Source: an uncultured Alphaproteobacteria bacterium (lineage in GTDB: Bacteria; Pseudomonadota; Alphaproteobacteria; RF32; CAG-239). Taken from it: DNA of 64,000 bases. Below are positions 10,920-19,697 of this stretch, piece after piece. The stretch is from the NCBI GenBank assembly GCA_944393175.1, contig CALXZH010000010.1:2733-66732 (forward strand), written 5' to 3'. A program made the translations under genes and the position numbers. A model generated the notes under the pieces. The model ran no database searches. It saw only the letters and a program-made list of their open reading frames with translations, and was not told where the DNA came from. The number at the start of each line of letters is the position of its first letter. Position 1 is the first letter of the stretch.

Positions 10920-12833
10920 TTATTTAACTTCTTCAAAGTCAGCATCAACAACTTTTTCATCACCATTGCCCGACTGAGCTTGACCAGCGTCTGCTCCGGC
11001 ACTAGCACCGGCTGCAGCACCTTCAGGAGCAGCTTGTTTGTACATAGCTTCACCCAATTTCAGTGAGGCTTGCATCAAGTTTTCAGTCTTGGCTTTGATG
11101 TCTGCCAAGTCATCAGCTTCCAAAGCCATCTTCAAGGCTTTGATTTCGTCTTCAATCTTGGTCTTGTCAGCAGCTGAAATCTTGTCACCATGCTCTTTTA
11201 AGGTCTTTTCGGTAGCATGAACAAGTCCTTCACCTTGGTTCTTGGCTTCAACCAACTCTTTCTTTTGCTTATCGGCTTGAGCGTTGGCTTCAGCATCTTT
11301 AACCATCTTTTCAATATCAGCGTCAGACAAACCACCGCTGGCTTGAATACGAATTGCTTGCTCTTTGTTGGTAGCCTTATCTTTGGCGGAAACGTTTACA
11401 ATACCGTTCGCATCAATATCAAAGGTTACTTCAATTTGCGGCATACCACGCGGTGCAGGCGGAATTCCTACCAAGTCAAATTGACCAAGCAATTTGTTGT
11501 CGGCAGCCATTTCACGCTCACCTTGGAAGACACGAATCGTAACTGCGGTTTGGCCATCTTCGGCGGTTGAGAAGACCTGAGATTTACGGGTCGGAATCGT
11601 GGTGTTACGATCAATCAAACGTGTGAAGACGCCACCCAAAGTCTCAATACCCAAAGACAACGGGGTTACATCCAATAACAAGACGTCTTTAACATCACCC
11701 ATCAAGACACCGCCTTGAATTGCAGCACCGACAGCAACAACTTCATCCGGGTTAACACCTTTGTGCGGTTCTTTACCGAAAATTTCTTTTACTTTTTCTT
11801 GGACTTTCGGCATACGAGTCATACCACCAACCAAAATAACTTCGCTGATTTCGTTAGCTTTTAAGCCAGCATCTGCTAAAGCCTTTTGGCAAGGAGCAAC
11901 CGTACGGTCAATCAAATCTTCAACCAAAGATTCTAATTTAGCTCTGGTCAATTTGATGTTTAAGTGTTTCGGACCGGTTGCGTCAGCCGTAATAAACGGC
12001 AAGTTGATTTCGGTTTGAGTGGTTGAAGACAACTCAATCTTAGCTTTTTCGGCAGCTTCTTTCAAACGTTGCAAAGCCAGACGGTCATTCTTCAAGTCAA
12101 TGCCGGTTTCTTTTTTGAACTCATCGGTCAAATAACTTACAATACGTTGGTCGAAGTCTTCACCACCCAAGAACGTATCACCGTTGGTGGATTTTACTTC
12201 AAATACGCCATCGCCGATTTCCAAAATAGAAATATCAAACGTACCACCACCCAAGTCATAAACGGCTATCGTACCGTTGGCTTTTTTATCCATACCATAA
12301 GCCAAAGCAGCGGCAGTCGGTTCATTAATGATACGCAAAACATCAAGTCCGGCAATTTTACCGGCGTCTTTTGTGGCTTGACGTTGAGAGTCATTAAAAT
12401 ATGCCGGTACGGTAATTACCGCTTTATCAATTTTTTCACCCAAATAGCTCTCGGCATATTCTTTAATCTTTTGCAAAACGATGGCTGAGATTTGTGACGG
12501 GGCATATTTTTGGCCTTTTACTTCAACCCAAGCATCGCCGTTGTCGCCTTCAATAATTTTGAAAGGAACAAGTTTTTTATCTTTTTCTACTTCCGGAGAG
12601 TTATAACGACGACCTATTAAACGTTTAATTGCAAATAAGGTGTTTTCCGGATTGGTAACGGCTTGACGTTTTGCAGGGAAACCTACCAAACGCTCCGTAT
12701 CCGTAAAAGCAACCATTGACGGCGTTGTGCGTGCACCTTCAGAGTTTTCAAGAACTTTGGCTTCTCCACCTTCCATTACTGCAAAGCAGGAGTTGGTTGT
12801 ACCTAAGTCAATACCTATTACTTTATTGCTCAT
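10920..12833 (-). CDS. dnaK: Chaperone DnaK (Hsp70).
   Basis: [23 protein letters not shown]..., DLGGGTFD, C-terminal EEVK-like tail. The true start is the internal Met 17 codons into the ORF. Confidence 0.95.
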
Positions 12834-12884
12834 TTTGTTTTCCTTTTCGTTTATAAAAAAACTCAAATTTAATCTTTCTATCAA

Positions 12885-12915
12885 CTTATATAGGTAGCAC
12901 TTTATGGTTAAGCAA
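12885..12915 (-). promoter_or_regulatory. Candidate sigma32 (RpoH)-type heat-shock promoter for dnaK: TTGCTT-N15-CCTATATAA.
   Basis: The minus-strand sequence ttgcttaaccataaagtgctacctatataag resembles the alphaproteobacterial CTTG-N17-CYTATNT consensus. It shares a TTGCTT -35 hexamer with the dnaJ upstream region. Confidence 0.35.
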
Positions 12916-13043
12916 TACTTTCACAATTTTTTTTGAATTTTTTTTGATTTTTTATAAAAGATGTCGGATAGGATAAAAAAATAGCATTTTTATTGTATTG
13001 TTTGATGTTTTATGTTAATTTAAATATGTTGTAGTGGAGAGAA

Positions 13044-13826
13044 ATGATGCGTTCTGATAAAATAAAGCAAAGGATTAATAGGTTAAAAAATAACGGAAAA
13101 ACTTTAGCTTTGGCTACTTTGCTCAGCAGCCCGTTAACTGCAAATGCTGCACAAAATAACTCTACAAGTTCAGATTATACTCTTGAGGGAAAGACAGAAG
13201 TTGTAACGAAACATCTTAATCAAAAATACTCTCAAACCTCAACTTTGCAAAGCCGTGAAACTTTTAATCATCATGATAATTCTGAAAAAAACTATACTTC
13301 TGCCTTTCAGTCTTTATATGAATTAGGTGACGGATACTTTATGACATCTCTGCAAGTTATGAAGCAAGAAACAAAAAATAATCATCCATCTTTTTTTGAA
13401 GACAATAAAACTTTATATCTTACTACTCCGACAGGGGAAACCTATGATTGTTCATTTCTTCATCAGAATAAAAAATTTGATTTTTTACCCGTGGGTTTTG
13501 AAAAAAATTGCTTTGTCAAAGAAGATGGGCAGCCGGATATTGAGTTAGAAAATAAATTAGTTAATAAGGTAAAAAAGCTTGTCGGTGTTAACCAAATTAC
13601 TCCCGAAGCTACCATGCAATATAATAATCTTATAAAAGACAAAAAGCTCGTGGATGCAAGAAAAAAAGGTATGCCTGAAGAGGTTGTGGCTAAAATTGAC
13701 ATTTATTTACAACAAAATCTTGAATTATTGAATAGCGGAAAAACCTATATTGCTTCAATTTCTTCTTTTAGAAATATGAATGCTCAAGCACAAAAATTAT
13801 CCCAGATTAAAGGGAAAGAACGTTAA
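13044..13826 (+). CDS. Hypothetical secreted protein (signal peptide ...LALATLLSSPLTANA).
   Basis: 260 aa, basic N-region then hydrophobic core. No domains recognised. Lies between dnaK and dnaJ. Confidence 0.5.
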   Translation: MMRSDKIKQRINRLKNNGKTLALATLLSSPLTANAAQNNSTSSDYTLEGKTEVVTKHLNQKYSQTSTLQSRETFNHHDNSEKNYTSAFQSLYELGDGYFMTSLQVMKQETKNNHPSFFEDNKTLYLTTPTGETYDCSFLHQNKKFDFLPVGFEKNCFVKEDGQPDIELENKLVNKVKKLVGVNQITPEATMQYNNLIKDKKLVDARKKGMPEEVVAKIDIYLQQNLELLNSGKTYIASISSFRNMNAQAQKLSQIKGKER

Positions 13827-18326: not shown

Positions 18327-18470
18327 GGTTATTCTCCGAGAGTGTCATTACTGATATAAAAAAATATAGCATATTTTTTGTCTTTTAACAACACTTTTTG
18401 TCTAAAATATCAAAATATACTGAAAATATAGCAAAAAATAGTTTAATTTTTATTTACAAAGCTATTTGGG

Positions 18471-18499
18471 CTTGCTTTTTGCTAATTATGCCCCTAAAT
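18471..18499 (+). promoter_or_regulatory. Candidate sigma32-type promoter for dnaJ: CTTGCTT-N13-CCCCTAAAT.
   Basis: Resembles TTGAAA-N13-15-CCCCATNT. Lies 47 nt upstream of dnaJ. Confidence 0.35.
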
Positions 18500-18545
18500 A
18501 AAGGTAAACTTTTGGAAAATTGAATTTTTAAACAGCTGTAAAAAA

Positions 18546-19697
18546 ATGACTGAAAAAGACTATTACGAACTATTGGAGGTCAGCCGTGATGCCAGCGGTG
18601 ATGAAATTAAAAAATCTTATCGGCGTTTGGCTATGAAGTATCACCCAGACCGCAATCCGGGGGATAAAGAGGCTGAGGCAAAATTTAAGGAAATTAATGA
18701 GGCTTATGATGTCCTCAAAGATGAGCAAAAACGTGCGGCTTATGACCGCTACGGACATCAGGCTTTTACTTCGGGTATGGGTGGTGGAAATCCGTTTGGC
18801 GGATTTGAGTTTAATTTTGGCAGCGGTGGCTTCTCAGATATTTTCTCTGACATTTTCTCAGATTTTATGGGTGGCGGACAACAACGCAACGCAAATTCTC
18901 GCTCTTATGCCAGAGACGGAGCCGACGTTCGTTATAATTTGGAGATTTCTTTGGAGGAGGCCTTTACCGGCGTTGAAAAAGAGATTTCTATCCCCTCTTC
19001 TCAGGTTTGTGAAGACTGCAACGGCTTTGGTACGGCTGATGGCAAGGAACCGCCGATTTGCACGATTTGCCACGGACACGGTAAGATTCAAATGCGTCAA
19101 GGCGGCTTTTTCATTGTTGAGCAAACTTGTCCGACCTGTAAAGGAACAGGCCGAATTATTAAAGACAAATGCAAGAAATGTTCCGGCGAAGGCGTTATTC
19201 ATAAAGAAAAACTCCTCAAAATCAAAATTCCGGCCGGAGTTGAAACCGATACCCGTATGAGAGTTCCGGGCGAAGGCGAACCCGGATTAAGGGGCGGCAG
19301 AAACGGCGATTTATATGTCTTTATTACGGTTAAAAGCCATAAACTCTATGTTCGCGATGGCGCAAATCTTTACACCAAAGTGCCTATCTCGATGGCTTGT
19401 GCGGCCTTGGGCGGAAAAATTGAAATTCCGGGAATTGAAGGTGACAGTATCGAAATTGAAATTAAACCTGGAACTCAATCTGACCAACAAGTTAAAGTGG
19501 CTGACAAGGGTATGTCTATCTTGCGCTCAAAACGCAGAGGCGATTTGTTCGTGAAATTCCGCGTAGAAACTCCGGTTAATCTCTCGGCAAGGCAAAAAGA
19601 GTTACTCGAAGAATTTCGCTCAATCAGCAAAGATGAGAGTTGCCAGCCTGAGGCAAAGGGCTTTTTTGATAGAATAAAAGACTTGTTTGTGGCTTAA
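18546..19697 (+). CDS. dnaJ: Chaperone DnaJ (Hsp40).
   Basis: J-domain with HPD ([10 protein letters not shown]), G/F-rich linker, four CxxCxGxG zinc-finger repeats. Confidence 0.95.

Follow-up and report, generated by a model that had tools for sequence, protein, structure and literature searches.

A split and divergent dnaK-dnaJ locus shared across a clade of uncultured gut Alphaproteobacteria

Gene content of the locus

Adjacency of the chaperone gene dnaK and its co-chaperone gene dnaJ is the common state in Alphaproteobacteria. We analysed the dnaK-dnaJ locus in a stretch of 64,000 nucleotides from an uncultured alphaproteobacterium (the window), where the two genes are divergent, dnaK on the minus and dnaJ on the plus strand, with their starts 5712 bp apart. 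Between them lie an open reading frame (ORF) of 260 amino acids (aa), a gene of the thymidine phosphorylase family (TP) and a 955-aa ORF that contains a proline-rich 14-aa repeat (hereafter the large gene, or "big" in gene orders). The ORF table of the window holds all five ORFs at their predicted coordinates and strands, confirming the original prediction that dnaK and dnaJ are split and divergent with 5.7 kb between them. The features of the locus are collected in Table 1.

Both chaperone genes encode full-length proteins. DnaK matched NCBIfam NF001413 at 1061.4 bits (cut-off 648), TIGR02350 at 995.8 bits (cut-off 822.55) and Pfam HSP70 at E=2.5e-281, and is a full-length match above the curated equivalog cut-off. 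DnaJ scored 441.5 bits against TIGR02349 (cut-off 377.2) and 526 bits against NF008035, and the Pfam families DnaJ, DnaJ_CXXCXGXG and DnaJ_C all matched, in line with its J domain, zinc finger and C-terminal domain. Its translation shows an HPD motif and four CxxCxGxG motifs (including CKKCSGEG), and the protein is a type I (Hsp40) DnaJ. Within the gene, a 12-nt tandem repeat of 2.7 copies (18831-18862) encodes part of the G/F-rich linker. Exact-sequence look-ups of the window DnaJ and of protein P0002 matched no record.

The TP product matched NF003338 (506.8 bits, cut-off 434) and TIGR02645 (458.5 bits, cut-off 434.6) over its full length. The 499-aa protein is thus a member of this "putative thymidine phosphorylase" family, an archaeal-type family II nucleoside phosphorylase. 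Assignment as an AMP phosphorylase was rejected, as TIGR03327 gave 351.8 bits, under the equivalog cut-off of 535.

Table 1. Features of the dnaK-dnaJ locus in the window, in order of position
Feature	Position	Strand	Basis
165-aa conserved hypothetical gene, downstream of dnaK	10307..10804	-	ORF table; homologues at same position
Sigma70-like promoter of the 165-aa gene, TTGACA-16-TACAAT, 11/12 matches	10863->10836	-	
Intrinsic-terminator hairpin after the dnaK stop, CCGCTTCGA-gcaa-TCGAAGCGG then T8	10876..10897	-	Sequence read
dnaK, Hsp70 chaperone, 637 aa	10920..12833	-	NF001413, TIGR02350, Pfam HSP70
RpoH (sigma32)-type motif of dnaK, ATTGCTTAACCATAAAGTGCTACCTATAT (ATTGCTT-N15-CCTATAT, read from 12916 to 12888), begins 83 nt upstream of ATG	12888..12916	-	Motif
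260-aa AT-rich hypothetical gene, signal-peptide-like N-terminus, in the variable TP-dnaK spacer	13044..13826	+	ORF
TP, archaeal-type "putative thymidine phosphorylase", 499 aa	13838..15337	-	NF003338, TIGR02645
Intrinsic-terminator hairpin 3' of the 955-aa gene, parting it from TP, CCGGAGG-tttt-GCCTCCGG then T7	15429..15447	-	
955-aa gene, clade-restricted family, divergent neighbour of dnaJ	15459..18326	-	
Tandem repeat, 42 bp x 3.9, encoding PPVNQTPAPGQTPK	15648..15812	-	Inside 955-aa gene
Sigma70-like promoter candidate for the 955-aa gene, TTGTTA-17-TG-TATATT	18363..18391	-	Conserved intergenic block
RpoH (sigma32)-type motif of dnaJ, CTTGCTTTTTGCTAATTATGCCCCTAAAT (CTTGCTT-N15-CCCTAAAT), begins 75 nt upstream of ATG	18471..18499	+	Motif
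dnaJ, type I Hsp40 co-chaperone, 383 aa	18546..19697	+	TIGR02349, NF008035, Pfam domains
Terminator-like hairpin after dnaJ, 12-pair stem then T-run	19781..19809	+	

Conservation of the arrangement and its promoters

The locus was compared across 80 species-level loci, obtained by a DnaJ-guided scan of one genome per species (DnaJ identity 63-99%) and scored with tblastn, blastp and a hidden Markov model built from the large protein family. All 80 belong to gut Alphaproteobacteria that have not been cultured, with humans, mice, chickens and ruminants as hosts. The clade includes "Candidatus Scatocola", which NCBI places in Rhodospirillales incertae sedis, and "Proteobacteria bacterium CAG:495"; we take it to be the group named RF32 in GTDB.

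At least 10 species-level genomes have the arrangement of the window, at DnaJ identities from 99% down to 72%. Writing the direction of each gene as an arrowhead, the order <dnaK <TP <big dnaJ> is found in nine species, plus L005, whose contig ends early, and L037, which is without the large gene. In 25 species the order is TP>dnaK> <big dnaJ>, and 12 further loci carry <big dnaJ> with dnaK lying beyond the stretch compared. Three species have dnaJ> followed by <dnaK <TP. A contiguous TP>dnaK>dnaJ> is seen in five species, and in seven dnaK> and dnaJ> point the same way with unrelated genes separating them. Across these states TP lies upstream of dnaK and co-oriented with it in 46 of 49 informative loci, and in 45 of the 80 the opposite strand carries a member of the large family (836-1865 aa) that begins 149-266 bp upstream of dnaJ. 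Protein P0007, of 65% identity, is found on 19 contigs, with the same gene order at all four places shown. A strain-level contig whose large protein is 95% identical (L087) carries dnaJ followed by the large gene, TP and the 260-aa gene, and even P0029, a homologue of 27% identity, is divergent from dnaJ. The relatives rank alike for all four genes.

Because so many related species share it, the layout is very probably an old, inherited organisation typical of the clade and not a recent insertion. Synteny with relatives, the comparison by which the original prediction was to be judged, thus speaks against recent acquisition of TP and the large gene. Literature searches covering dnaK/dnaJ separation in Alphaproteobacteria and the RF32 group of the gut yielded no account of this locus.

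The promoter motifs are conserved alongside the genes. CTTG-N17/18-CCTATAT is present at -69 to -106 of dnaK in 51 of 51 dnaK-bearing related loci (exact in 41), and CTTG-N18-CCTAAAT in 73 of 80 dnaJ loci (exact in 64), at -60 to -76 in most of them, in agreement with the earlier claim that both genes keep sigma32-like elements. The exact patterns occur 154 times in 2.77 Mb counted on both strands with the true sites included, a background of 0.014 per 250 nt. Given this background and the constant distance upstream across the clade, the strings are far beyond chance. The clade motif agrees with the rhizobial RpoH motif cTTGaa-N16-CgATaT (PMC4167512), and both window motifs are predicted, by sequence criteria, to be alphaproteobacterial RpoH (sigma32)-type promoters. 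The RpoH-type motif of dnaJ is kept even in species where dnaJ directly follows dnaK. The gene's own promoter therefore appears to be older than, or independent of, the split, which would explain why the split was tolerated.

The other two genes gave a different picture. The exact RpoH-type motif was found upstream of the large gene in none of 49 loci, and upstream of TP in four of 47, at inconsistent positions. In an alignment of 46 of the intergenic regions, about 210 bp long, that dnaJ and the large gene share, a conserved block coincides with the sigma70-like site reading from 18391 to 18363. The seven dnaJ loci without the RpoH-type motif make up an outgroup-like set (L069, L077-L079 and L081-L083, with dnaJ at about 10001). 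In these, dnaJ is part of a co-oriented string with gaps of 4-10 bp (PBP-like, tmk, holB, tatD-like, ..., dnaJ, lolC/E, lolD), and no dnaK was found within 10 kb of dnaJ in any of the seven species.

Hairpins follow dnaK, the large gene and dnaJ at their 3' ends. The window dnaK and dnaJ do not form an operon, being on opposite strands with distant starts, a terminator after dnaK and a separate promoter motif for dnaJ. A conserved RpoH-type motif for each chaperone gene, together with a terminator hairpin after each, therefore predicts independent heat-shock transcription units. Four separate units are predicted in all, of which dnaK and dnaJ would be heat-inducible via RpoH and TP and the large gene would not. 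With its own RpoH-type promoter and terminator, each chaperone gene would have stayed under heat-shock control when the two were split, an explanation that supposes both sigma32 dependence and monocistronic transcription.

Several further features of the window were recorded. Genes homologous to the 165-aa gene occupy the equivalent place in L001 and L006-L009 (55-87% identity), and the 165-aa product has no Pfam, NCBIfam or PHROG family match. Upstream of rpsB-tsf lies the Rfam rpsB leader RF01815 at 7472-7569 (+), scoring 48 bits against a gathering score of 40. A second proteostasis gene, encoding an 817-aa Lon-like protease, is found 3 kb from dnaJ at 22495-24948 (-); it is 98-99% identical in the nearest species, and LonC_helical, AAA_32 and Lon_C domains were identified on its L087 equivalent. 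An exact RpoH-type match, CTTGTTTTTCAGTCTACGGGACCCTAAAT at 43330-43358 (+), opens a 575-bp AT-rich stretch (43309-43884) that contains no ORF of 50 aa or more, and could drive a small heat-shock gene or RNA. The 306-aa ORF at 42388-43308 (+) has, in its translation, a DPPY motif (MIVDPPYNL) typical of N6-adenine/N4-cytosine DNA methyltransferases.

Intervening genes and history of the rearrangement

The original prediction regarded the intervening genes as candidates for lineage-specific acquisition, to be checked by GC and codon usage. Window means were 0.400 +/- 0.044 for GC, 0.388 +/- 0.060 for GC at third codon positions (GC3) and 0.115 +/- 0.031 for codon-usage distance. TP (GC 0.425, GC3 0.384, codon-usage distance 0.081) and the large gene (0.437, 0.384 and 0.075) lie within one standard deviation of the window means in composition and are not atypical. 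They are also found clade-wide, so the absence from close relatives expected of a genomic island applies only to the 260-aa gene. This gene has a GC of 0.319 and a GC3 of 0.245. Its homologues occupy the same spot only in L006, L035-L037 and L087, and none is present in L007-L009, although their DnaJ is 98% identical. Since it is AT-rich and patchy among close relatives, we read the 260-aa gene as a recent insert, and it alone looks like a recent accessory acquisition. The earlier suggestion thus survives for this gene, in both composition and distribution, and fails in both for TP and the large gene. The N-terminus of the 260-aa protein resembles a Sec signal peptide (KTLALATLLSSPLTANA/AQ), as read from the sequence without a predictor, and the protein has no match in Pfam, NCBIfam, PHROG or PADLOC.

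The spacer between TP and dnaK, in which the 260-aa gene lies, is a variable site. It measures 113-170 bp in 23 species and elsewhere holds a Gfo/Idh/MocA oxidoreductase, an HD-domain protein, hypothetical proteins of 134-140 aa or the 260-aa gene. Examples of this spacer are found in L035 (1973-4408), L054 (6287-7901) and L040 (1636-4812).

The large gene belongs to a family of its own. The ratio of nonsynonymous to synonymous divergence (dN/dS) is 0.11-0.13 against the nearest species, with values of 0.06-0.15 for the structured parts and 0.20 for the proline-rich tail, and the 955-aa ORF is a real gene under purifying selection. It nonetheless evolves fast, the large protein being 73-75% identical where DnaK is 99%, DnaJ 98% and TP 95% identical. 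Its homologues are 58-95% identical and distant ones 26-29%. An exhaustive profile search recovered 172 clusters among 1.84 billion representatives, most of 900-2200 aa, with a conserved core at profile positions of about 45-615; a second word-index search with the profile added one new member only. The 955-aa protein has no match in Pfam, NCBIfam, PHROG, PADLOC or the PDB.

Its architecture consists of a helical N-domain, three weakly hydrophobic Ala/Gly-rich helices (about 440-580), a C-domain and the proline-rich tail. A first AlphaFold2 model from 13 sequences was poor, with a predicted local distance difference test score (pLDDT) of 52. A larger alignment of 32 sequences improved the N-domain only, giving an all-helical fold over residues of about 10-425 at pLDDT 80-97; a smaller part at 650-750 was also confident, and the Ala/Gly-rich helices and the tail were uncertain. 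The predicted N-domain matched none of the solved folds with which it was compared. The 42-bp repeat is present in 3.9 copies in the window and in 5.9 copies in L087 (12518-12766), whose 95%-identical homologue comes from another sample, and the tail is therefore strain-variable. We suggest, with low confidence, that the large protein is associated with the membrane or belongs to the envelope and exposes its variable tail.

A neighbour-joining tree of concatenated DnaK, TP and DnaJ was used to order the rearrangements; it was midpoint rooted, without support values or an outgroup. Species with the window state fall within one clade, which also holds L018 and L024 (both in the dnaK> <big state) and L013 (in another state). 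The canonical co-oriented state occupies a deep clade (L033, L050, L052, L040 and L041). Genomes that lack the large gene (L054, L060 and L066; L046 and L034) are nested among carriers, and no remnants of it were found in the spacers of genomes with co-oriented dnaK and dnaJ. Together these two observations point to secondary loss of the large gene in those genomes. In the group nearest to the window, the block that runs from the 165-aa gene through dnaJ has the reverse orientation with respect to rpsB-tsf, judged against Ca. Scatocola faecipullorum (L001 and L009) and L018. Ca. Scatocola faecipullorum has rpsB-tsf at the dnaJ end of this block instead of the dnaK end. Only chance-level pairs of inverted repeats were found where the rearranged blocks begin and end.

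The most parsimonious reading of these states would start from the canonical TP>dnaK>dnaJ>. The large gene would then have taken its place between dnaK and dnaJ on the opposite strand, after which inversion of the TP-dnaK segment would have given <dnaK <TP <big dnaJ>. In the group closest to the window, the flip of the block relative to rpsB-tsf and the appearance of the 260-aa gene in the TP-dnaK spacer would have followed. Relatives display intermediate arrangements, and the "inversion plus insertion" of the original prediction is a fair account of the history.

Some points weigh against this reading of an old, inherited locus with two RpoH-controlled chaperone genes. As the trees have neither an outgroup root nor support values, the order of events is one of parsimony only. 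The position of L018, L024 and L013 within the window-state clade means that the inversion either happened once with a later reversal or happened twice, and the large gene may have had a single gain followed by several losses. In the seven outgroup-like species dnaJ lies in another, motif-less context, leaving the deep ancestral state uncertain. All genomes are metagenome-assembled genomes (MAGs), and sigma32 dependence is deduced from the motif only. Finally, against the three nearest species the synonymous divergence (dS) of TP and the large gene is 1.3-1.45, roughly fourfold the values for dnaK, dnaJ and the 165-aa gene on either side (0.28-0.49), and the segment from TP to the large gene could have a separate recombinational history.

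This dS comparison set the window against L006-L008 over about 20 kb per genome. Values were 0.1-0.55 for rpsB, tsf, the 165-aa gene, dnaK, dnaJ and the Lon-like gene and 1.0-2.7 for the genes at 25-29.7 kb, so that over 7500-30000 blocks with a dS of 0.1-0.5 alternate with blocks of 1-2.7. Such a mosaic suggests recombination between species-level lineages of the clade. Downstream of dnaJ, three AT-rich genes at 19756-21691 (240, 207 and 176 aa, the last DUF805-like; GC 0.29-0.30) look like a recently exchanged accessory block. The first two are near-identical to those of L006 (dS 0.03-0.04, where the adjacent dnaJ has 0.42); in L007 and L008 the first has only a partial match (90% over about 80 aa) and the second no detectable match.

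The mosaic bears on one alternative in particular, in which the layout is old but the segment of TP and the large gene was replaced, in the window lineage or its nearest relatives, by homologous recombination with a more diverged clade member. The dS mosaic against L006-L008 is what such an allelic replacement would leave. Yet dnaK and dnaJ are highly expressed genes whose synonymous sites are commonly constrained, and the mosaic may reflect either this constraint or blocks with different histories. High-dS blocks also occur outside the interval, in a comparison of limited length, and against L009 all genes are near dS saturation, where rate differences and history are not separable. We regard such a replacement as possible though unlikely. 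Even with recombination, resident alleles would have been replaced and no new genes would have arrived. The raised dS of TP and the large gene would also fit a recent, horizontally acquired 5.7-kb island inserted into the dnaKJ operon of this lineage, as would the dnaKJ adjacency of five clade members and the AT-rich, patchy 260-aa gene. Against an island stand the orthologous TP and large genes in the same positions in dozens of species, their typical composition and codon usage, and the identical ranking of relatives for all four genes. Marks of mobility were also missing: no tRNA was found inside the interval or anywhere at 10-20 kb of the window, no integrase or transposase domain in Pfam scans of the interval, no phage or defence match in PHROG or PADLOC, and no meaningful flanking inverted repeats, direct repeats not having been searched. 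A recent island is thus very unlikely. Although every sequence is a metagenome assembly, the chance that a chimeric MAG contig, through an artefact of assembly or binning, joined non-neighbouring dnaK and dnaJ regions is negligible, as assemblies made independently, in different studies and from different hosts, agree in order and orientation (L005-L009, L087 and the 19 P0007 contigs), and the ORFs and intergenic motifs are intact over the junctions.

A further alternative concerns the reason for the layout. The large gene may be kept beside dnaJ by functional coupling, for example as a large membrane-associated protein whose folding, insertion or function would need DnaJ/DnaK. The pair would in that case form a functional module as opposed to a neutral neighbourhood. 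The divergent pair, with its near-constant spacer of about 200 bp, persists in 45 of 80 species, at DnaJ identities as low as 63%, with the surroundings reshuffled, and the 27%-identical member also lies beside dnaJ. By contrast, at least 12 species with both dnaK and dnaJ lack or have lost the large gene and show no remnants of it; no RpoH motif precedes it; its distant member P0075 does not adjoin dnaJ; and neither a domain nor a fold points to chaperone biology. Coupling seems unlikely to us. It is similarly improbable that an undescribed gut-alphaproteobacterial family was paired with dnaJ by such coupling and that its recruitment, as opposed to neutral rearrangement, drove the dnaKJ split. 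Were coupling to hold, the large protein could possibly be a membrane- or envelope-associated protein with a strain-variable proline-rich tail that needs DnaK/DnaJ for its biogenesis or activity.

Comparison with known systems

The locus represents a known system in a variant arrangement that the whole clade shares. For a scan of the genome its main value is negative, in that the locus is not a recent acquisition. Adjacency of dnaK and dnaJ is among the more stable bacterial gene pairs, and here it is broken across a whole clade of common uncultured gut Alphaproteobacteria. The clade offers a natural example in which expression of chaperone and co-chaperone is uncoupled and both genes apparently remain under RpoH-type control. 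The conserved motifs provide a ready-made signature of the RpoH regulon for these organisms, and the large, fast-evolving yet conserved family is a candidate for study.

The canonical alphaproteobacterial dnaKJ operon, as in Caulobacter, Agrobacterium and rhizobia, has the same two full-length genes and a motif of RpoH consensus before dnaK, and a few clade members retain its dnaK>dnaJ> adjacency. The window genes differ in being neither adjacent nor co-oriented nor co-transcribable, with a terminator after dnaK, and dnaJ in the clade has its own RpoH-type motif even when it follows dnaK. TP resembles the family described by NF003338 and TIGR02645, exceeding both cut-offs over its full length, and differs in falling under the cut-off for AMP phosphorylase. 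To our knowledge, with no literature search made, the thymidine phosphorylase family has no known linkage to dnaK.

Separation of dnaJ from dnaK occurs elsewhere, as in Helicobacter pylori (hrcA-grpE-dnaK, with dnaJ elsewhere) and several cyanobacteria. There too, separate units allow expression of chaperone and co-chaperone to be uncoupled. Those bacteria, however, use HrcA/CIRCE or HspR and have no conserved intervening genes, whereas the window genes are within 6 kb of one another, both have RpoH-type motifs and each has a conserved partner gene. Differential expression of dnaK and dnaJ is reported in Salmonella (PMC12077118). In Bacillales, the genes of the hrcA-grpE-dnaK-dnaJ block were "never separated" in 33 species (bioRxiv 10.1101/212886). 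This block is a benchmark for dnaK-dnaJ stability, although it differs in phylum and regulation; in the gut clade, by contrast, the adjacency is broken in most species.

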